Positions 1 through 20,273 of a stretch of 62,664 bases of DNA are shown here, piece after piece. Within the stretch, counting starts at the first letter, position 1. Every line of letters begins with the position of its first letter. Both the position numbers and the translations under genes were made by a program. Source of the DNA: a virus (lineage: Duplodnaviria > Caudoviricetes); the IMG/VR virus record IMGVR_UViG_3300018719_000038, positions 1 through 62,664 of that record; one strand, 5' to 3'. Below the pieces are notes generated by a model, which searched no databases, was not told the origin of the DNA, and was given only the letters and a program-made list of their open reading frames with translations.

Positions 1-384
1 ATGAAACGCACGATGCCGCAGAGCGACGAGATAGACGCGATCAAGACGTACATGTTCCTTCCGCTCATCCTATCAGCGTTTGAACGGGATCGACGCATAT
101 TCGAGACGCTATTGAAATCGCCGGAGCCGTACATAGATTTGCTAACGATAGCCGCGGATAAGGTTACGAAGGACTTAACGGAGGTTCGCCGCCTGTTTCG
201 AGAACGCGGCATAAAGGTATACGAAATGGAGCGCGGCCAGGCGTGGATTGCCCGCTATATGTGCCGGGGATACACCGGAGATGTGACGCTGTGGGAGCAG
301 CTTGCTATTGCGGAGGCCCGCGTTTTGATGCGGAAATATCTCGGGATTGATACGGAGAAGTTGTGGGAATATTCGCGAAAATAA
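1..384 (+). CDS. Hypothetical protein
   Basis: 127-aa ORF followed by a terminator-like hairpin; no recognisable motif. Confidence 0.7.
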   Translation: MKRTMPQSDEIDAIKTYMFLPLILSAFERDRRIFETLLKSPEPYIDLLTIAADKVTKDLTEVRRLFRERGIKVYEMERGQAWIARYMCRGYTGDVTLWEQLAIAEARVLMRKYLGIDTEKLWEYSRK

Positions 385-387
385 AAA

Positions 388-406
388 GAGCGCAATAGCT
401 GCGCTC
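388..406. terminator. Hairpin between convergent genes (probable terminator)
   Basis: GAGCGC-N7-GCGCTC with an A-run on the left (U-tail on the minus strand). Confidence 0.6.
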
Positions 407-414
407 ACTATACG

Positions 415-1170
415 TTATAGGTTATTCGAACTCGGAAGCTCGAACTCTTCCAGCTCTTCGTAGATATCTTTTTGAATGCTATATTTCCGCGCCAACTGAT
501 ACGGAATTGTATAATCCCCGAACATATTATCAAGAATCGCGTCATAGTCTACGCCTTCCGCTTGCTCGCGTCTCCATGATATGTATACTCCGTCATTCTC
601 GCCGCCACCAACGTTATCAATCAGAACATTAAGAGAAACTTCATACACTTGTGAATTCTCAAACAGTACTTTTGAATATGCGATTAGCGAACCGCCGGCT
701 CTTTTAACGAAGTCCTTATAGTCCGCGAACATGCCCGGGTTTATCGTGATCTCAACATACTCGCCCTTAGTATCCGCAGAAGTTACGAATTTGCGGAAGC
801 TATCGTCTGTCAACGGAATAGCCATCGCAGCGCCAACGTTATCTTTCAGCGCCTTCTTGATGTTATCCTCCGTCACCTCTGCGCTTGTCCAATTAAAAGA
901 CTGCTCTGCATTTCCCACTTCTTGTGCTGTCTCAACGGGCTCGGGTTTTGTTTCCGGTACGTCAGATTCCTGGGCCGGGGGCGTCTGTGCTGTCTCAGGT
1001 TCTGTGGCAGTAGCCGTCCCCCTATCACTGCCGCCACTAGTACCGCCCGTAATATAGCCGATCAAGACAATAGCAATTACCGCAATAACGAAGCACGCAA
1101 TAACGTACTCCCACTTTTTATCCAGCTTCACCTTTATCCCCTCCAAATTACCTAAATCATACCATCCCAT
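415..1170 (-). CDS. Membrane-anchored exported accessory protein
   Basis: N-terminal hydrophobic helix (YVIACFVIAVIAIVLIGYI), T/E/P-rich linker, acidic globular domain; lies distal to the lysis cassette. Confidence 0.75.
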   Translation of the reverse strand: MGWYDLGNLEGIKVKLDKKWEYVIACFVIAVIAIVLIGYITGGTSGGSDRGTATATEPETAQTPPAQESDVPETKPEPVETAQEVGNAEQSFNWTSAEVTEDNIKKALKDNVGAAMAIPLTDDSFRKFVTSADTKGEYVEITINPGMFADYKDFVKRAGGSLIAYSKVLFENSQVYEVSLNVLIDNVGGGENDGVYISWRREQAEGVDYDAILDNMFGDYTIPYQLARKYSIQKDIYEELEEFELPSSNNL

Positions 1171-1247
1171 AAACGAAAAAAGAACCCCTCAACGAAGCCT
1201 TTACGTCATTTACGCAAAGACCCGCCGAGGGGTTCCGTTATTTCGCT

Positions 1248-1469
1248 TTATTCCGTTTTATCCTCGCCGCCACTTCCGCCCGTGCCGTCGCTGTATCCTT
1301 CCGCCAGCATATACGCAACGCACGCCCCCACCGCGCCGATCACGCCCGTCACCTGCAGCGTTACGTTTTCACCCGCGCCGGCCGCCGCAAGGACCGACGT
1401 AGCGAGTGCGGCGAGCAGCGCCCAAAACTTCCGCGAACTCAATTTCCGTGCCCAGTCGATTTTCTTCAT
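1248..1469 (-). CDS. Holin
   Basis: MKKIDWARKLSSRKFWALLAAL..., two TM segments, typical 'KLSSRKFW' holin N-terminus, next to endolysin; start reassigned to ATG at 1469. Confidence 0.8.
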   Translation of the reverse strand: MKKIDWARKLSSRKFWALLAALATSVLAAAGAGENVTLQVTGVIGAVGACVAYMLAEGYSDGTGGSGGEDKTE

Positions 1470-1473
1470 TATA

Positions 1474-2175
1474 TTACTTCGCTCCTTTCGAAATAAAAAC
1501 GGTATTGCTCGCGGCGTCCCATTTGACTTCTGCTCCGAGAGCTTCCGCAATGTCCCGCACCGGCAAGTACGTAACGCCGGAATCCACCACGCCGTCGCCG
1601 ATCTTCTTGCCGTCAACCTTAACGTTAACGATTACGTCTTTCTTCACGTCTTCCGCTCCTTTTGTCCGATTAATCCGCGCCATAGCCTCGTCAATCTGCG
1701 CCTGTGTCGGCCGCTTCCCGGCGCGGTATTGAGCCTTTGATAATCCGAATGTCATTTCGAAGTGCGGCATATCCTTGAACGTACGCCAATCGCCGCCCCA
1801 CGCAAATCCGAGCTTCTTGGCCTCCTCGACGACTTCGTTCCAGTCCGCAACGCCGTCGCGATCCCCGTCCAGCCGCGTATCCCACGATACCGACCGACCG
1901 TCCCCGGTTAGCAGCGCGAAGTCGATCGCAACGCCGAAGTTATGGTTCGAGTAGCCGCCGCGTGCATTGGTAACGATCTTCCCCGGCTTCGTTCGGCCCT
2001 GCGCATATAAAGCGTCTTGCTCCGCGATGGTCCGCAGGCCCTGCGTAATTACGATTGGGACTCCTCGCGCATAGCAGCGGTCGATTAGCGCCGAGGCCGC
2101 CGCAGCAACAACCGGAAGAAGCCCGCGCAATTTGGCCGCGGACTTGGATCGTACATATTCGAGTGTTAACGTCAT
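1474..2175 (-). CDS. Endolysin, M15 family peptidase (L-Ala-D-Glu peptidase-like) with C-terminal copper-amine-oxidase-N-like domain
   Basis: GLRTIAEQDALYAQGRT, SNHNFGVAIDF, WGGDW..FKDMPHFE motifs; C-terminal TYLPVRDIAEALGAEVKWD. Confidence 0.9.
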   Translation of the reverse strand: MTLTLEYVRSKSAAKLRGLLPVVAAAASALIDRCYARGVPIVITQGLRTIAEQDALYAQGRTKPGKIVTNARGGYSNHNFGVAIDFALLTGDGRSVSWDTRLDGDRDGVADWNEVVEEAKKLGFAWGGDWRTFKDMPHFEMTFGLSKAQYRAGKRPTQAQIDEAMARINRTKGAEDVKKDVIVNVKVDGKKIGDGVVDSGVTYLPVRDIAEALGAEVKWDAASNTVFISKGAK

Positions 2176-2496
2176 TTAAGCCGCATCCTTTCCGTTTATA
2201 ATCGCCTTGATATCGTGTACATCCGAAGCCAGTCCGTCATATTGCCGCGCAAGTGTCTCGAACCGGTCCGTCAGACCCTCCGCCAATCGCATCAGGCGGT
2301 CCTCGCGCGCAGTTGCTTCCGCATGCATCCGTTCGTTCTGCGCCTTAGCCTCCGCACTGATTCGTTCTTCCCTTTCGCGAGCCTCCGTTGACATGCGGCG
2401 CATCTCCCGCCAAAGCACCCACGCGAGGATACCGGCCGCGACCGCAAATATTCCGTTCTTCGCAAGCTCCGCAAATATCGTTTGTTCCATCGACAC
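2176..2496 (-). CDS. BhlA/UviB-like holin-like protein
   Basis: NGIFAV TM helix followed by 'REERI/REDRL' coiled coil; directly upstream of endolysin. Confidence 0.7.
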   Translation of the reverse strand: MSMEQTIFAELAKNGIFAVAAGILAWVLWREMRRMSTEAREREERISAEAKAQNERMHAEATAREDRLMRLAEGLTDRFETLARQYDGLASDVHDIKAIINGKDAA

Positions 2497-2538
2497 ACCC
2501 CGTGTAAATAAAAATATCCGCTGTCCTTACGGAGCGGA

Positions 2539-2826
2539 TTACGTTGTTTCCGTGATTTCTTCGTAATTTGCGAGCAGTTCGTTGTAGTCGCGAACGTAGA
2601 CGTCTCCCTTGTCGTCCTTACAGACAAACTGGCCCATTTTCACGACGAGGAGCTTTTCGGGTCGCTTGATAATCCCGGCCCTGACGTTTCCGTCTGCATC
2701 GTAATCAACAGTAGCTGGCAGACCGGTGAATTTGATAATCTTCATAATTGTTTCTTTCTCGCCATCCGCAAACTCAACCGCCTCAACACGGTCCCTCGAC
2801 TGAAATATTCTGATCATCTTCAACAC
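2539..2826 (-). CDS. Hypothetical protein following tail fiber
   Basis: 95-aa ORF with VEAVEF motif; hairpin terminator downstream (~2516-2539). Confidence 0.65.
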   Translation of the reverse strand: MLKMIRIFQSRDRVEAVEFADGEKETIMKIIKFTGLPATVDYDADGNVRAGIIKRPEKLLVVKMGQFVCKDDKGDVYVRDYNELLANYEEITETT

Positions 2827-3742
2827 CCTTCATTTTTTTTTTTTTATTTATACGCTTCCAGTCAAATGAATACTTCCACGTATCAGTTGTATAACTATTT
2901 GGGATCACCTGGAAACCATCAGTGTTTATACGTCCGGTAATCTGAAAATTTTGTGAATCTTTTAATAGAGGTGCGGTGCTTGTTTTTCCAGAAGAGCCAT
3001 AAACATACACACCGCCGTAAGTAGTGCTGTCACTTATATTCTGTATCGTCATGTCTGTTAACACGAACAATGATTGCCGATCTAGGTTGTTGTTATATAA
3101 AAGCGTTGCCTTAACACGAACAAGGCTTGGCGTAAACGATAGTCCTGCTATTATCAGTTTTGGGTCATTTCCAGGTCGTTGAACGTTGCCGCTAGCGTAC
3201 TTTTTTCCTTGGTAAATCTGCCCGATCTTCTGCGCCAAAACTGGAAATGTATCGCTCCCTGATGCCGGTACTCCTTTGCCAGTGATGGCGGAAGCGATCG
3301 TGTTTTTCCCATCACTGACATTTGTAAAAAGCTCGTTAATCGCGGCGACCGTGTTAGTTTTCGCTCCGGTGAGCAGCGATGCCAACGGGCCGACGGCGTT
3401 GCTGGCCGCGACTGCTGCGGTGTTCGCTGCGTTTGCCGTTGACTGTGCCGCAGAGGCCGCGCTATTAGCCGCATTAGCAGTGCTTTTTGCATCCGCCGCC
3501 GCATCATAGGCTGTTTTAACAGCCTTCGAGGTTGCCGCCGTCGTCTCGCTGGCACTGTTTGTGGCGCTGGATAGCTGTACGATACCCTTCTGCGCCGTTG
3601 TAGCGTCCGGCACGGTAATCTCGCCCAGTGCCTCCGTTACCGACGAGTCTACCGCCTCCGCGAGTGCGTTCATATCCCGCGGCACATCGGCCGTCATTGT
3701 TCCGTCAATTAGCGGAAGCTTTAAATTAGCTGTTTGCGCCAT
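2783..3742 (-). CDS. Tail fiber / receptor-binding protein (C-terminus probably frameshifted; natural end likely DWEAYK* at 2844)
   Basis: MAQTANLKLP N-terminus, DATTAQKGIVQLSSATNS tail-fiber repeat, VSDGKNTIASAITGKGV segment, AT-rich variable C-terminal domain. Confidence 0.85.
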   Translation of the reverse strand: MAQTANLKLPLIDGTMTADVPRDMNALAEAVDSSVTEALGEITVPDATTAQKGIVQLSSATNSASETTAATSKAVKTAYDAAADAKSTANAANSAASAAQSTANAANTAAVAASNAVGPLASLLTGAKTNTVAAINELFTNVSDGKNTIASAITGKGVPASGSDTFPVLAQKIGQIYQGKKYASGNVQRPGNDPKLIIAGLSFTPSLVRVKATLLYNNNLDRQSLFVLTDMTIQNISDSTTYGGVYVYGSSGKTSTAPLLKDSQNFQITGRINTDGFQVIPNSYTTDTWKYSFDWKRINKKKKMKGVEDDQNISVEGPC

Positions 3743-14487: not shown

Positions 14488-15606
14488 TTAGGATACCGAC
14501 GTGTTAATGTTTTCGAGGATCGCGATTTTCTCGCCGGCGTTCTTAACCGTTACGCCGTATTCGCCGCGAATTTGACGAGCCACGAAGTCAGCACCCGGTA
14601 CAGTCGCGTCAACGTCATGCAGAGCGCGGCCGCTAAGTGGGTTGATCGACAAGATGGAGCGGTCAAAGAGTGCGATCTTATTTTTAGGGAAGTTCGGATC
14701 AACTACGACGGTTGCAACAGACCCACCAACGATATCAGACACGAACGTCTGAATCTTGTGGCCGGTTACTTCGTCCGTACGTTCGGTACGGATTGTGTCG
14801 CTTGCAAACTTCGTAATTTGACGAGCACCGGCAGTGTTAGTCAGAATCGTATTAACGGACCCGCCGCGCAGATAGACGTCCTCGGCCAAGTCGTTCAGCA
14901 GTTTCGGAGTGATCTCCTTGCCCTCCGCGTTCTTCTTGGCGGCACCTTTCTTATCCGCAAAATACAGCAGGCCGCCAGTCGTCCGAGGCATACCCGGAGC
15001 ACCTTCGATACGACGGCCATAAATCAACCAATCGTTTTGTTCGCGGGCGATCTCCTTCAACCGGAGTTGTACCTGATAGTCCAACTCGTTCGTAACGTTG
15101 TATGTCCGGACATTTTGCTGCGTACCGGATACGGCTGCATACCGCTCGATGATTTGCGTAAAGTTGTGGTCAACCAAACGGTCGTGTCCTTCGTCAATAC
15201 CCGGCATAGCGCCCTCCAACTGCGGACGAGCTACGATGCGGATTTCGGCACCGGCGGCGATATCCGCGGCAGTCGTACCGTCATAGCCGCGCACTACGGT
15301 AATTACGTCGCCTGCAACGGCCGTAACGCGCAGGTACTCCTCGCCAGCCACCGCGATAGCATTAACGCGGAACTTGAGGCCGTCGCCGTCATTAACCGTA
15401 ATGGTCGTTGCCGCTGCTGTTGCGGCCGCCTTTGCGGTTGCGCGGTTAGAGTTGAGGTTGTCGGACATCCATTCAAATTTCGTTTGATACAGCGGCGTAT
15501 TTCCGATACCTACGAGGCCGAGCAGCGTCGGCGCGTCGTTGATAATGAGCGAAATGCCCGCTTCAAGCTGGCGGACTTGGTCCTGAAAGTCGTAAGATTT
15601 AAGCAT
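14488..15606 (-). CDS. Major capsid protein (DUF5309/SU10-like)
   Basis: 372 aa after scaffold; FEWMSD, NFTQII..AVSGT, PRTTGGL, GEYGVTVKN motifs. Confidence 0.88.
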   Translation of the reverse strand: MLKSYDFQDQVRQLEAGISLIINDAPTLLGLVGIGNTPLYQTKFEWMSDNLNSNRATAKAAATAAATTITVNDGDGLKFRVNAIAVAGEEYLRVTAVAGDVITVVRGYDGTTAADIAAGAEIRIVARPQLEGAMPGIDEGHDRLVDHNFTQIIERYAAVSGTQQNVRTYNVTNELDYQVQLRLKEIAREQNDWLIYGRRIEGAPGMPRTTGGLLYFADKKGAAKKNAEGKEITPKLLNDLAEDVYLRGGSVNTILTNTAGARQITKFASDTIRTERTDEVTGHKIQTFVSDIVGGSVATVVVDPNFPKNKIALFDRSILSINPLSGRALHDVDATVPGADFVARQIRGEYGVTVKNAGEKIAILENINTSVS

Positions 15607-15670: not shown

Positions 15671-16372
15671 TTATTTTTTGAGTAGCTTATTTGATAGTTC
15701 GATTACCTTCGAAAAATCCCTTGCCTTTTTGGCTTCGGCCAATTGAGCCTCTAACGTTTTACGTTCGTCGTCGTCGCCGGGGTCCGGGTCACTGCCTCCG
15801 ATGGACTTCGGCTTTGTTTGCGCTGGTAAATAAGGATGCTCGGCAACCAACGCCTCAACAGCTTCCTTCGCGCCGACCACGTTACCTTCGTCGTCAACCG
15901 TAACTCCGGACAAATCCGCAAGTTTGAGCGCAGCGGCCAACCGATCCGCCGGAATATTAGCGTCGCGAGCGAGGGCCTTAAACTCTGCATTAATCAGGCG
16001 CTGGTTTGCGGCCGTTAATGCGGACGTCTTCGCCTTTTCCGCTTCCTCCGCCTTATTCCGCGCCTCTTCCAATTCCGCGGCCAGACGTTCAGCTTCGGAC
16101 AGCTCCGCTTTCTTTCGCTCGGCCTCCGCCAGTTCCAGCGCTTCAAGCTTCGCTTTGATATCGTCGTAATCTGCGTAAGGCTTTTTTGCCCGCGCCTTCT
16201 CGCGGCTAATAAGCGCGTCGAGTTCTTCCTGCGTCATCGTAACGGTACGCTTATCCGGTTCTCCGCCGGAACCTTCGCCATCACCGCCTGCTCCCGGGTC
16301 ATCTCCGCCCTCACCTTCCGCAAAAAGCTGCAGATTCAACGGATATCTAAAACGAGTCATTTCGTTTTTCAT
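15671..16372 (-). CDS. Capsid scaffolding protein
   Basis: YPLNLQLFAEG N-terminal motif (Prp-type cleavage motif), TQEELD, YADYDDIK coiled coil. Confidence 0.88.
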   Translation of the reverse strand: MKNEMTRFRYPLNLQLFAEGEGGDDPGAGGDGEGSGGEPDKRTVTMTQEELDALISREKARAKKPYADYDDIKAKLEALELAEAERKKAELSEAERLAAELEEARNKAEEAEKAKTSALTAANQRLINAEFKALARDANIPADRLAAALKLADLSGVTVDDEGNVVGAKEAVEALVAEHPYLPAQTKPKSIGGSDPDPGDDDERKTLEAQLAEAKKARDFSKVIELSNKLLKK

Positions 16373-16461
16373 TACGTTCCTCCACCGTTTAAAGCCCGTC
16401 GGCTATTAATGGCCGTTGCAGTTTAACGTCATAAACGTTCGGACGGGCGGCTAGTCCGCCA

Positions 16462-17235
16462 TTATGCCGCGATGAGTTCCGGCGTTGTTACGCATTCCGG
16501 AATCGTGCGACGAATTCGTTCTATCATATCGATACAGGCGTGCGACCTGCGGTTACGGTCGTAGTATCCGTGAACATAGTTTGCGAAAACCTCAAACTTA
16601 CGGTCTAATCGCAATGATCGCGGCGTGTCCGCGTACATAAAAAAGCACCAACGCAAAGCGTCGGCGTTCGATTTAGTGGTAAGAGTATACATCGGACTTT
16701 TACGACCCGACTTACCGGCACGGTGTTCCTTCAACGTCGTGTTGATGCCTCTCTTTTGGAACTCCACTTGCATGTCCTCAAAGAAACTTTTTGTTGCGCC
16801 ACAGATTAAAAGTTGAAGATCGTTCCACTGTTTCCCGTGTTTTATATTTCCGTCTCCCTCGAAAACTCCGCGAGTGAAGTCCCAAAACAGCGACTCCGGA
16901 ATATTTGGAACGGTCGTATTGAATGTCTTATTACTTCTTGCCATTCCGCATGCAAACAAGTCTTCTGCCATTTCCTTACGGCACACTCGTAAATACGCAA
17001 AGTGCCTACCGTCATCTTGTGTCCCTTTAAATACAGGACCGGTAAACCGCATGGCCCTCTTGATCTTTTCAAGCGCGTCGATATCGTGGGATTTAAGCAT
17101 AAGACGAATCTGCCCACTCTTTTCATTTACGGAACCGTCAGTGAGCAACCACCCAAACACCCACGCGCTTTCCCTAGTCCATGTCTTAAAAAAGTCTTCA
17201 TTGACACTGTGAACTTTCCTAACTAAATCGCCCAA
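16462..17235 (-). CDS. Free-standing two-motif LAGLIDADG homing endonuclease
   Basis: SAWVFGWLLTDGSV and WDFTRGVFEGDGNI motifs; C-terminal LDRK. Confidence 0.88.
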   Translation of the reverse strand: MGDLVRKVHSVNEDFFKTWTRESAWVFGWLLTDGSVNEKSGQIRLMLKSHDIDALEKIKRAMRFTGPVFKGTQDDGRHFAYLRVCRKEMAEDLFACGMARSNKTFNTTVPNIPESLFWDFTRGVFEGDGNIKHGKQWNDLQLLICGATKSFFEDMQVEFQKRGINTTLKEHRAGKSGRKSPMYTLTTKSNADALRWCFFMYADTPRSLRLDRKFEVFANYVHGYYDRNRRSHACIDMIERIRRTIPECVTTPELIAA

Positions 17236-17339
17236 TTAACCAAACCCCTTAAAGTTCGATTCCTTGAGAAGATGCCGCGCAGGGCGCCAAGGTCGCGCCT
17301 TTTCGGTGATCAGCCTATCGCGGCCAAAATAAAAACGCC

Positions 17340-18386
17340 TCAATCGGCGTCTAAAAGTTTTGGATCACGTATTGGAGAAATTACGTGGCGACAATTTGGC
17401 CCACGCTGTTATCTCCGGTTTCCCGGAGTGTCGGACTATCCCATAACCTCGAAAGGCTCCGCTATTATAGTCTCTGCACGTCCCTGTCTCTTTGGGATTG
17501 CGATGTACGCGGACAGGTTTCGCTCACGGTTGCCGTAGCGCAAATACGCCGTAGGGTTCCCTGAATTTAAGCGGTTATTCGATGCGAGTCACCTCGCAAA
17601 GCCACCCGTTTGTCGATGGAATATTTCTCGGCGCGGCAAATCACCGAAATACGGATAATCGCCCGGGGCATCGCGTACCAATTTGACGATGCGTCCTTCC
17701 CAGTTTCGGCAGGCGTCCGTAGCTCCGTGGCGCGATATCCGACCGTAATAAGCGCGCCGACCAATAGCTTCGTTTACCGTCGCTTCCCGGTGTGACTCCG
17801 CCATCTTCGTCCGCGTAACCATTTCTACGTAGACTTCCGGCTTCCAACGTCGGCCGGCCGCGTCAATAATTCCGGTATTTACGGAGTCGCCGAGCTTTTT
17901 CCGTAATCCGGCGAGGATATCCGCGCTAATCGTCCGTCGGCCGTTCACGCCTTTCGTAAGATTGGCGCGCATGGATTCCGCGGTTACTTGCCGGACCACC
18001 GTCCGGACGCGCCGCTCTATGTTTTTGGTGACCGCCAGCAAATCCGCTTGAGTATCCGCTACGGCCGCCGCGACGAGTTCCCGGTTGATCTTCGTAAATT
18101 TGACGAGCTTTTCCGCGTCCTTAACGTCCAGCGACACAAGCGCAGTCAGCACACCATCGCGGACAGCCTGCGGAATGTTCTTCGCGACCCAGGCCGCCGA
18201 CTCTTCGTCAAGTGATGCGAGTATTTTCGTTACCTCAATGAGTGCGGCCGCCGAGTTTGCCCGGGACATGTTCGCGATGTCAATGCGGTCGAGTTCGGCA
18301 AGGATCACAGCAATTGCCTTTTTATACGCGCGGACCAGGCGGCCGATTTCATAATCGTAATTAGGTTCCGGGATTTTAGCGGGCAT
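17340..18386 (-). CDS. Minor capsid protein, spliced (exon 1 18386-17616, exon 2 17399-17340)
   Basis: Exon 1 ends ...REIFH; exon 2 reads PNCRHVISPIRDPKLLDAD*, restoring the conserved FHPNCRH motif. Confidence 0.9.
17400..17615 (-). ncRNA. Group I self-splicing intron, 216 nt, no internal ORF
   Basis: 5' exon ends in U paired with G of IGS GGUGG; terminal G; P (AAAUUCAGGGAA), Q (GCAACCGUGAGC), R (GCAGAGACUAUA), S (GGGAUAGUCC); P3 CCGCU/AGCGG, P7 GACUA/UAGUC, P2 GUGA, P8 UUCG and P9 GAAA loops. Confidence 0.93.
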
Positions 18387-18693
18387 ATGTCGCTACCGCT
18401 TCGTACGTCGCCGCAAAGATGTCAGGCTTGCACGGATACCGCTCTCCGGCCACTCCGGTTATGATCCAGTCACCGGGCGAAATTTCGTGGAACCCTTCAA
18501 GCGTTTTTATTGCTGGCTTTTGGATGCACTTGGGGATAGGGCCGTTCTTATCAAAGTAACCGATAAAGTTACCTGTAACAGCCTTGCCGGAGGTTCCAAC
18601 GGCGATTGCATAGCATGCATACCCGTCCTCCATTCCCGGCGCGTACAATACCGCATCGATAACCACCGGCTTCTTGCGATATTTGGGCATCAC
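18376..18693 (-). CDS. Hypothetical phage protein
   Basis: KYRKKPVVIDAV..IKTLEG..PGDWIITGVAGERYPCKPDIF, a common phage family. Confidence 0.8.
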   Translation of the reverse strand: MMPKYRKKPVVIDAVLYAPGMEDGYACYAIAVGTSGKAVTGNFIGYFDKNGPIPKCIQKPAIKTLEGFHEISPGDWIITGVAGERYPCKPDIFAATYEAVATYAR

Positions 18694-20273
18694 ACAACGA
18701 CCTCCTCAACCTCTTCGTTAAAGACCGAGCCGTCGACCTTCCCGTTCATGCGTTCCTCGTCCGCGTCGATCCTCTTGATGCGCTCCTCTGCGGTCGCGTC
18801 GTCAACTCCGTCGAGTTCTTTAATCGCGTCAGCAACGGATTGCGTCGGCTTGCCGCCGGTCCGGATATTCGCCACTTCTGCCGCTTCTTTCGGGTCCTGC
18901 GGCACCCCATCACGCCAGTTAATCCGCGGATACACGGGCTCGTATGGCACGAATCCGGCTACGTCCTTATTAGCGTAGTTTTCGAGCTGCATCGCGGTCC
19001 AGATAGCGTCGCGGAGTGCGCGGTCAACGTGCGCCCGAATACGGTTGACCTTTGCCAAAATCGGCATGAAACGTGCCTTAATCGCGCCGGAATCCGTATG
19101 TGACGTGCCGGTTCCGCCTTTGTCGTTAGCGAGGGTCGTACCAAAAAGCCACTGCGGCGTCTCACTCATCTGATAAACGAGACCGAGCAGGATGTCGAGC
19201 TCCTTAAACGCAGATTCGAGTTGCCCCTCCCACGTTAGATAGCCGGGCGTCGTGTCGTTTTTCCCGACCGGAATGTAGCGGCCGCCACCGCGGACAGTGT
19301 CTCCGCCGTCTTCGATGTCCTCCGGTCCATACATCCACGGATCGGAATGCTTCCAAAGGATATAGTCAATCTGCGCGAGCCGCTCATTTATCGCGCTCAA
19401 CACGCTTTCCAACTTTTCAACGCCGGAGATACCTTCCCACCGATCATCGACCGACTTATACGGGATGTGATGGACAAGCAACCGGTCCGTCCCCGTTTCA
19501 ACGACGTCATTTTCGCGGCCAGTCGGGACCGCATCGCCGATCGTATATGTCGGAATCGGCACGCCCCAGTCCTCGTTGACGCTCCGCTCATTAAGGCGGA
19601 ACCGTTCGTAGGTTATAAATCCCGGAACGTGTCGCTCGACTACGAGATATGGCGTATATGTCGCCTCTTCGCCCGAAAGCCATCGGACTACTTTTCCGTT
19701 GGGCTCCTCGACCCAGTCAATCCACGCGATGTTGATCGCCTTGAACCTCTTGCGCGAGCCCTTCGAAAGCTCCGGAAATACGATGTTAGCCGGCACCGCC
19801 TCGATAATCGGTTCGAGCGGCACCTCCGGCGCAGGCAGTCCGAGTTGAGCCGCTAGTACCTCCGTCTCGCTTACGTCCGCCCGCGCGGCATAGTACGTTT
19901 TGATAAACGAGTCGCCGCGATAGCCGCCGCCGATGACGAGTTCGTGCGTCATTTGCGTCAAGTCGTTCTCCTCAACGATCGAGTCGAGGCGTTCCTGTTC
20001 GCGGCTGCCCAGGCCCTTTCCGCTTTCATATGTCGGTGGCTCGCCGGTCAGCAAGTCCGCCGGCTTCGTGAGCAAAATGTCCATGAGGTTAACCGCAATA
20101 AACAGCGTTTCAAGCTGCGCGGCGTGCGGCGTATCCTTTAAGAGCGACGAGGCCCGTTCGTAGATTTCCGGGTGCCGGCCGTCAAAGATTACGCGGCCGC
20201 GTTTATATCGGGCCAGGCGTGGGATATCGCGTTCAGGCGGGTACTGTTCACCTGTTTTAAACAATTTCGCCAA
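18690..20273 (-). CDS. Portal protein (SPP1-like)
   Basis: 527 aa directly after terminase; SETPQWLFG, SGAIK, INWRDGVPQD. Confidence 0.88.
   Translation of the reverse strand: MAKLFKTGEQYPPERDIPRLARYKRGRVIFDGRHPEIYERASSLLKDTPHAAQLETLFIAVNLMDILLTKPADLLTGEPPTYESGKGLGSREQERLDSIVEENDLTQMTHELVIGGGYRGDSFIKTYYAARADVSETEVLAAQLGLPAPEVPLEPIIEAVPANIVFPELSKGSRKRFKAINIAWIDWVEEPNGKVVRWLSGEEATYTPYLVVERHVPGFITYERFRLNERSVNEDWGVPIPTYTIGDAVPTGRENDVVETGTDRLLVHHIPYKSVDDRWEGISGVEKLESVLSAINERLAQIDYILWKHSDPWMYGPEDIEDGGDTVRGGGRYIPVGKNDTTPGYLTWEGQLESAFKELDILLGLVYQMSETPQWLFGTTLANDKGGTGTSHTDSGAIKARFMPILAKVNRIRAHVDRALRDAIWTAMQLENYANKDVAGFVPYEPVYPRINWRDGVPQDPKEAAEVANIRTGGKPTQSVADAIKELDGVDDATAEERIKRIDADEERMNGKVDGSVFNEEVEEVVV

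Follow-up and report, generated by a model that had tools for sequence, protein, structure and literature searches.

Organization of the locus

We analysed a stretch of 62,664 nt, hereafter the window, which comprises positions 1 to 62,664 of IMG/VR virus record IMGVR_UViG_3300018719_000038 (Duplodnaviria; Caudoviricetes). The record is a complete provirus, a Paenibacillaceae-type prophage of a temperate Bacillota phage from a soil bacterium, with a head module encoded on the minus strand. Within this module, a compact group I intron lacking an open reading frame (ORF) interrupts the gene for minor capsid protein 2 close to its 3' end, and a free-standing gene encoding a two-domain LAGLIDADG endonuclease follows the short second exon (Table 1). 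The best explanation for this arrangement is a pair of linked selfish elements at the 3' end of the capsid gene, and the best reading of their relationship, in which we have about even confidence, is collaborative homing of the intron and the nuclease gene.

The identity of the interrupted gene is supported by matches of exon 1 to PF06152 (42.3 bits; cut-off 26.3) and to the minor head protein family phrog_4611 (7e-46). Further along the head module lie the genes for the scaffold and for an SU10-type major capsid protein (MCP).

Table 1. Features of the head module and helices of the intron, with positions in the window.
Feature	Position	Strand	Remarks
Portal gene	18690-20273	minus	
Small PGDYG-like ORF	18376-18693	minus	between portal and minor capsid genes
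Minor capsid protein 2 gene, exon 1	17616..18386	minus	257 codons, ends ...REIFH (TTCCAT at 17616)
ORF-less group I intron	17400..17615	minus	216 nt; RF00028 match, covariation, same site in five variants
P1	17619-17615 / 17606-17602	minus	U.G pair 17616/17605
P2	17597-17593 / 17588-17584	minus	loop GUGA
P3	17574-17570 / 17463-17459	minus	
P4	17564-17559 / 17529-17524	minus	
P6	17522-17521 / 17480-17479	minus	
P6a	17517-17512 / 17488-17483	minus	
P6b	17510-17508 / 17502-17500	minus	
P7	17472-17467 / 17439-17434	minus	
P8	17458-17454 / 17449-17445	minus	loop UUCG
P9	17428-17423 / 17418-17413	minus	loop GAAA
Intron terminal G	17400	minus	
Exon 2	17340..17399	minus	CCAAAT..., 19 codons (PNCRHVISPIRDPKLLDAD) + TGA stop
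Terminator-like hairpin + T run	17323..17352	minus	overlaps exon-2 stop codon; consensus scan, pattern match
int-alpA-like structured leader	17261..17325	minus	RF02996 match under cut-off
Free-standing double-motif LAGLIDADG gene	16462..17235	minus	257 aa, TTG start at 17235
Spacer ahead of scaffold gene	16373..16461	minus	kept in cassette-less X4 relative
Scaffold gene	15671-16372	minus	
SU10-type major capsid protein gene	14488-15606	minus	

A group I intron splits the minor capsid gene

Read without splicing, the minor capsid ORF ends at 17589 after the tail RQTGGFAR, at an in-frame stop codon occupying 17591-17589. The insertion lies between the His and Pro codons of a conserved FH|PNC(R/K)H motif. 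Joining 17616 to 17399 in script restores the reading frame and gives a protein of 276 aa ending FHPNCRHVISPIRDPKLLDAD, and this spliced tail matches those of uninterrupted homologues (e.g. P0002, 97% identity). Homology searches returned 668 minor capsid proteins, and the best 120 of these 668 were inspected at the junction. The motif FH-x-x-C-x-H runs unbroken through 112 of them, and the remaining eight (P0001, P0003, P0006, P0011, P0020, P0039, P0101 and P0104) end at FH or at intron-type tails such as RQTGGFAR. These eight are gene calls cut at the intron, and public annotation therefore misses the last 18-21 residues of the proteins concerned; a head-assembly protein whose output would hinge on RNA splicing matters for annotation. 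Judging from the restored C-terminus and its continuity in homologues, the full-length head protein can presumably be obtained only from a spliced message. A search for RNA runs containing this stretch returned none.

A search with the Rfam group I intron model RF00028 aligned positions 17412-17625 on the minus strand with the full model (1-253) at 46.9 bits (E 2.2e-10, 1.6 kb searched). Because the score of this copy misses the gathering threshold of 50 by 3 bits, a default gathering-score Rfam scan of the whole window listed no intron. At the same site elsewhere, two homologues exceed the cut-off (L069, 57.4 bits; L071, 53.0 bits) and two fall below it (L003, 40.7 bits; G118, 39.5 bits).

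Including the window, five variants of the intron were recovered, the other four being represented by L003/L004, G118/L070, L069/L076 and L071/L073. All are 211-216 nt long, follow TTCCAT and precede CCN-A, and end in G; in each, the exon sequence ...CCAU pairs with GUGG, which places a U.G pair at the junction. A P1-P9 structure with a P3/P7 pseudoknot was drawn by hand on the five-row alignment. In this drawing 98.8% of the cells are paired, and 16 of the 51 pairs have changed on both sides, these double changes being located in P2, P6a, P6b, P8 and P9. None of 500 shuffles equalled the observed pairing, and controls with slid partners gave one or two double-changed pairs and 32-41% pairing. 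Derivation of the structure from the same five sequences biases the paired percentage upwards, an effect that does not extend to the count of compensatory changes; P3 and P7 do not vary and therefore contribute no evidence of covariation. P5 is short and cannot be aligned reliably between variants, and by eye P10 amounts to 2 bp at most.

The structure contains neither P7.1/P7.2 nor a P5abc-like extension, features that we take to be the relevant subgroup criteria, and their lack presumably argues against subgroup IA and for a compact IC3-like intron. The minimum-free-energy fold of the intron alone was uninformative (z -1.14); the pseudoknotted core becomes visible only by comparison. No additional intron was found among 108 loci with an nhmmer profile of the five sequences, and a metagenome scan returned a duplicate of L069 as its sole match. 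An exact 21-mer scan of genome contigs gave no match even though G118 contains the 21-mer in question, and it carries no weight here as a sign of absence.

The comparative evidence indicates that the group I intron is real. A preliminary description of this DNA, prepared from the sequence alone, had proposed a 216-nt intron with a full P1-P9 core splitting FH|PNCRH of a minor capsid gene, a complete head protein dependent on splicing and an endonuclease gene lying outside the intron. Its coordinates were reproduced throughout, the core was recovered with the caveats given for P5 and P10, the model search that it recommended yielded the full-length match reported above, and its dependence on splicing agrees with the 112 continuous homologues.

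The free-standing LAGLIDADG endonuclease

The nuclease ORF starts at a TTG codon 104 nt past the exon-2 stop, with a Shine-Dalgarno-like AAGGGG run about 9 nt upstream. It matches PF14528 (36.4 bits; cut-off 22.5) and the endonuclease family phrog_4645 (5e-33). Across an alignment of 29 family sequences, D33 of the first motif (...GWLLTDGS) is nearly invariant (at least 90% conserved), and E126-G-D128-G of the second (...GVFEGDGN) is invariant. An AlphaFold2 model of the 257-aa protein (pLDDT 91, pTM 0.88) has a two-domain alpha-beta-beta-alpha-beta-beta-alpha fold, for which Foldseek returned, with probability 1.00, the TliVMA intein endonuclease, PI-SceI, I-Tsp061I, I-DmoI and I-AniI (query TM 0.45-0.58); a search of the PDB by sequence only gave no match. 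Between the window and L003, the amino-acid identity of the nuclease (81%) exceeds its nucleotide identity (76%). The conserved aspartates, the confident fold model and the structural matches to two-domain LAGLIDADG proteins make the free-standing nuclease look catalytically intact, and we predict that it is active.

A large protein collection contained 41 homologues of the nuclease. As noted for the G118 copy (L068 3931-4887, minus strand) and among homologues P0131-P0162, an additional N-terminal stretch of some 70-80 residues is present in about a third of the family; the protein of the window is the short form that lacks it. A distant family member in L041 gives weak N-terminal helix-turn-helix (HTH) matches below the Pfam cut-offs. 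Distant LAGLIDADG matches, at about 30% identity, come from chromosomes of Sporosarcina and Bacillaceae. Of the loci scanned in this group, the five from Sporosarcina and Lederbergia are located near FMN riboswitches, and an intron match was found in none.

A structured leader precedes the nuclease gene

Between exon 2 and the nuclease gene lies a 65-nt element resembling the int-alpA RNA motif. It matches RF02996 at 33.4 bits (E 1e-4), below the score of 35.8 required for membership, as do the corresponding elements in L003 (32.2 bits) and L005 (31.5 bits). The leader is 86-95% identical in L003, L005 and G118, the last by alignment, and its inner hairpin shows compensatory changes among the window and these three loci. 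The element occurs once in the window. L003 and L005 also have the terminator-like hairpin in front of it, formed there by a different sequence. The nuclease gene of L069 has no int-alpA-like leader.

Motifs of the int-alpA type were also observed at other sites. In L041 (997-1064; 50.8 bits), one stands directly before a free-standing LAGLIDADG gene at the terL-portal junction of a Brevibacillus prophage. Another, in Paenibacillaceae, precedes a GIY-YIG ORF (G048 contig 22, 131734-131802, locus L109; 41.4 bits), and in G064 a match narrowly below the cut-off (35.3 bits) stands in front of an HTH ORF. Ahead of nuclease genes, a terminator-like hairpin precedes the int-alpA-type motif. Among the genomes sampled, the motif was found in two of 151 Paenibacillaceae and one of 151 Bacilli.

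The int-alpA-type motif may be a leader common to free-standing homing-nuclease genes. A more speculative extension, which we consider doubtful, is that hairpin, int-alpA RNA and ribosome-binding site together form a portable leader for unrelated (LAGLIDADG and GIY-YIG) free-standing homing-endonuclease genes in Bacillota phages, one that would hold the nuclease silent or timed within a late operon; if, in addition, the LAGLIDADG enzyme cut precisely where the intron is inserted, then intron, 60-nt terminal exon and nuclease gene would constitute a replacement cassette for the 3' end of the capsid gene. Such a portable leader would give the orphan int-alpA motif, for which a literature search returned unrelated papers only, its first function.

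Co-occurrence of the intron and the nuclease gene and mobility of the intron

We assembled 52 distinct insertion-site alleles from viral contigs, genomes and a sample of 401 Paenibacillaceae genomes. The intron is present in five of these alleles, four of which (window, L003, G118 and L069) have a LAGLIDADG gene downstream, against one (L005) of the 47 alleles without intron. The association is strong (one-sided Fisher p 9.1e-5), although this value ignores kinship and, as the alleles are related, is not a true probability. Of the 401 genomes, 33 have the capsid gene and a single one has the intron; that same genome also contains a close homologue of the nuclease, and one more genome gave a nuclease match of 31% only.

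In an exon-1 tree of 52 rows, the intron alleles occupy five places, each beside intron-less sisters; support values are 100/96 for the window with L052, 100/100 for L071 with L106, and 98/64 for L003 with L005, the last pair within a 100/99 clade that includes L096. The five introns are 79-89% identical to one another, and the corresponding exon-1 proteins are merely 53-68% identical to that of the window. A higher identity of the intron than of exon 1 matches the prediction for horizontal spread, and by this comparison the intron appears to be horizontally mobile.

Close relatives of the window carry or lack the two elements together. A 1254-nt contig of the public run X4 joins 16461 to 17615, so that 16462-17614 (1153 nt) is missing and 45 other letters stand in its place; the missing block consists of the intron, exon 2, the spacer and the nuclease gene together. 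Through exon 1, this contig differs from the window at 67 of 757 nt (~91% identity). The spacer at 16373..16461 is retained in this cassette-less relative and thus delimits the inserted block on its right-hand side. In run X3, a contig of 20,619 nt carries both the intron and the nuclease gene, and the block from intron to nuclease is therefore present or absent as a unit in close relatives. Over the 30 nt past the intron site, the window, L003 and G118 share 24-26 letters mutually and 17-23 with their own intron-less sisters, a modest hint of co-conversion.

The preliminary description had suggested a homing pair and had called for a survey of related prophages. The survey bears out the pairing in part, through the association of the two elements and their joint absence in a close relative; the lineages with a single element fit it less well, and the independent occurrence that the description had named as telling against it is seen weakly, in one intron without nuclease (L071) and one nuclease without intron (L005).

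Several observations weigh against collaborative homing or reduce the force of the evidence for it. The window's own intron falls short of the Rfam cut-off, and the alleles in the association count are not independent samples. The high identity of the introns may partly stem from constraint on RNA structure. L071/L073 have the intron with no LAGLIDADG gene within 3.8 kb downstream, and L005 has the nuclease cassette behind an uninterrupted capsid gene; with intron and nuclease each alone once, either element can evidently persist by itself. Conservation of the nuclease ORF does not exceed that of its flanks (75-77% nucleotide identity, against 72-78% for the portal gene and 76-78% for the MCP gene), and the nucleases beside the intron are diverse, their identities to that of the window being 81%, 54% and 39-43%. 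The last figure is that of G118, which has the same intron and leader, and the block is therefore not transferred in one piece in every case. Finally, an insertion hotspot at this junction, described below, could inflate the co-occurrence. The intron and the leader are better conserved than the flanking genes; higher conservation of the whole block was ruled out by the figures for the nuclease ORF.

An insertion hotspot between the minor capsid and scaffold genes

The distance that separates the minor capsid gene from the scaffold gene varies between about 125 nt and 3.3 kb (L057, L056, L085, L040, L049, L053 and L071), and the cargo of this gap includes GDSL-lipase-like ORFs, a nuclease-like ORF with homing endonuclease associated repeats (HEAR) and ORFs of 104-760 aa for which no Pfam match was obtained. 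This varied and unrelated cargo and the variable length of the gap mark the junction as a general insertion hotspot.

The hotspot raises the alternative that the intron and the nuclease gene are independent tenants with unrelated targets and histories, brought together by linkage and shared descent, the nuclease being inactive, acting on other phage DNA or serving as a maturase. The many unrelated genes inserted at the junction suit this account, as does the occurrence of each element alone in one lineage, and some LAGLIDADG proteins are maturases, such as that of a Thermotoga 23S intron (PMC3984707). It is harder to reconcile with the polyphyly of the five intron alleles, four of which nevertheless have the nuclease, with the strength of the association even though kinship is ignored, with the joint absence of both elements from X4 and with the conserved catalytic residues of the nuclease. 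In L071 the intron persists without a LAGLIDADG protein, so a maturase is not required. On balance we regard independent tenancy as improbable.

Other cargo of the head module was noted along the way. In L097, the nuclease-like HEAR-repeat ORF (291-1469, minus strand; PF18780, 45.4 bits) occupies the same spot, and its last 39 residues (...ERIRRTIPEC..TPELIAA) are held in common with the LAGLIDADG proteins; L097 was considered as a second nuclease-only allele and rejected, as the match is confined to these residues and the ORF encodes a HEAR-repeat protein. L005 has a HEAR-like ORF ahead of the capsid gene (2093-3064; 25.4 bits, just under the cut-off) and the LAGLIDADG gene after it, so that the capsid gene is bracketed by two nuclease-like genes. 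The PGDYG-like ORF upstream of exon 1 likewise varies as an insert of the head module: positions 18371-18686 are missing from contigs of X3 and X4, where 13 other letters are found, a contig of X2 has 446 other letters at this position, and L003 and L005 likewise have no such ORF.

A model for collaborative homing

In the collaborative homing that we favour, the full-length head protein would be produced only once the compact ribozyme has left the late message; on unspliced transcripts, ribosomes would be halted by an in-frame stop after eight codons of intron sequence. The nuclease cassette, comprising the terminator-like hairpin, the structured leader and the LAGLIDADG ORF, would act from a position 60 nt from the intron site. 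Homing would begin in a cell that also contains a related phage or prophage whose allele lacks the intron. This allele would be cut by the LAGLIDADG enzyme at the insertion site or right beside it, and donor-templated repair would copy the intron into the recipient together with the short 3' exon and the nuclease cassette. The donor site would be safe from the enzyme by being split by the intron. In the nuclease-only lineage L005, protection may instead come from a changed site: it reads PCCAH, with an Ala that is unique among the 52 alleles, the other 51 having Arg or Lys. This single case hints at immunity by site change. Splicing in vivo, the position of the cut and protection of the intron-bearing allele are what we infer from the arrangement.

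Trans-homing by co-conversion, a possible but rather unlikely alternative in our view, differs in the position of the cut. The enzyme would cut nearby, in the last capsid codons or at the junction of its own cassette, and the intron 60 nt away would be dragged along during repair. The nuclease-only L005 is easily explained in this way if insertion of the cassette destroys the target, and the intron-only L071 would fit a short conversion tract. Cassettes with the same leader also stand at other head-module junctions without an intron, for example at terL-portal in L041, and such intron-less free-standing cassettes imply that this nuclease family can home on its own. There is, moreover, a precedent in T4, where MobE mobilises the neighbouring nrdB intron (PMC2790892). 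Two observations favour a cut at the intron site instead. Four diverged nucleases (39-81% identical) all lie beside the same intron site, and the sole nuclease-only allele has the unusual PCCAH, as would be expected of immunity if the site is the target.

Returning to collaborative homing, each of the four possible states occurs among natural alleles of the locus: some have both elements, some the intron or the nuclease alone, and others none. Together with four diverged nucleases at one site, these states make specificity, protection and co-conversion directly testable. Genome engineering, too, can make use of LAGLIDADG enzymes that have new long targets, as scaffolds.

Comparison with known systems

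Searches of the literature for free-standing LAGLIDADG enzymes retrieved organelle cases only and no phage case, and no title or abstract matched group I introns in Paenibacillus phages or the pairing of an intron with a free-standing LAGLIDADG gene. The ribozyme itself has a relative in Pectobacterium phage phiTE (L111), whose DNA-polymerase intron resembles ours at its 5' end (2487-2551; 65 nt, E 1.7e-8) and at its 3' end (3092-3127; 36 nt, E 4.6e-4). The shared parts comprise the guide sequence, P2, the 5' strand of P3, the 3' strand of P7 and the first bases of P9, as well as a 5' exon ending in CCAT. The Certrevirus introns (phiTE/CB7) differ in lying in a DNA-polymerase gene of proteobacterial myoviruses and in containing an HNH ORF, and the middle of the ribozyme could not be aligned by nhmmer. 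The DNA-polymerase introns of CB7 splice, as demonstrated by reverse transcription PCR (RT-PCR; PMC7344957). Together, the shared ends point to a ribozyme lineage that would span proteobacterial and Bacillota phages.

The phiTE intron also bears on the origin of the present arrangement. In a scheme of nuclease turnover, the intron once held its own endonuclease ORF, which was lost, and an incoming free-standing LAGLIDADG enzyme now serves the intron or merely adjoins it. This is an account of origin and is compatible with either collaborative homing or trans-homing. An intron with both ends in common and an HNH gene between them is what such a history would start from, the route has been proposed by Barth et al. 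(PMC10448857), and the 39-residue match of the L097 ORF could be a replacement scar. Against it, a remnant ORF was found in none of the five variants, all of them 211-216 nt long, and no ORF fits the 216 nt of the window's intron. We consider turnover very unlikely.

Collaborative homing has been described for two phages in a review (PMC3984707), and a later paper cites the cyanophage and T3/T7-like cases and adds the terminase intron of ICP1 (PMC10448857). As at the present locus, the psbA intron of S-PM2 with F-CphI and the T3/T7-like system have a free-standing endonuclease gene just outside the interrupted gene, the elements being linked (PMC3984707). There the target of the endonuclease is the intron-insertion site (PMC3984707), whereas here the cut site is predicted from the arrangement. 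The present case differs further in its two-domain LAGLIDADG enzyme, its location in a head-assembly gene and its temperate Bacillota phage.

In ICP1, the large-terminase intron is accompanied by an adjacent T5orf172 nuclease, and the nuclease gene likewise lies beside a morphogenesis or packaging gene and not in the intron; nuclease genes cluster around essential head genes (PMC10448857). The differences are a nuclease of the GIY-YIG type, a vibriophage background and a nuclease located next to the N-terminal exon (PMC10448857). Mycobacteriophages of Cluster J likewise have introns, in their describers' judgement most likely of group I, in virion structural genes (Pope et al. 2013, PMC3706429). 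Splicing of an ORF-less tail-gene intron of BAKA was confirmed by RT-PCR, and splicing of the LittleE capsid intron was reported (PMC3706429). The LittleE intron contains a LAGLIDADG-like ORF on the other strand (PMC3706429), whereas the ORF described here lies outside the intron, after the 3' exon. The preliminary description mentioned precedents for collaborative homing but was dated in placing most characterised phage introns in DNA-metabolism genes, since capsid, tail and terminase cases are in print (PMC3706429, PMC10448857).

The MobE system of T4 is similar in that a free-standing nuclease mobilises a neighbouring intron without a working nuclease of its own; it differs in that MobE is an HNH enzyme and the nrdB intron retains a defunct ORF, I-TevIII (PMC2790892). 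A handful of phage systems thus show a nuclease-less intron and an intron-less nuclease gene cooperating, and none of those described in the parts of the cited papers drawn on here uses a LAGLIDADG enzyme. Set beside them, the minor capsid locus is likely a new case in which two selfish elements cooperate in their spread.

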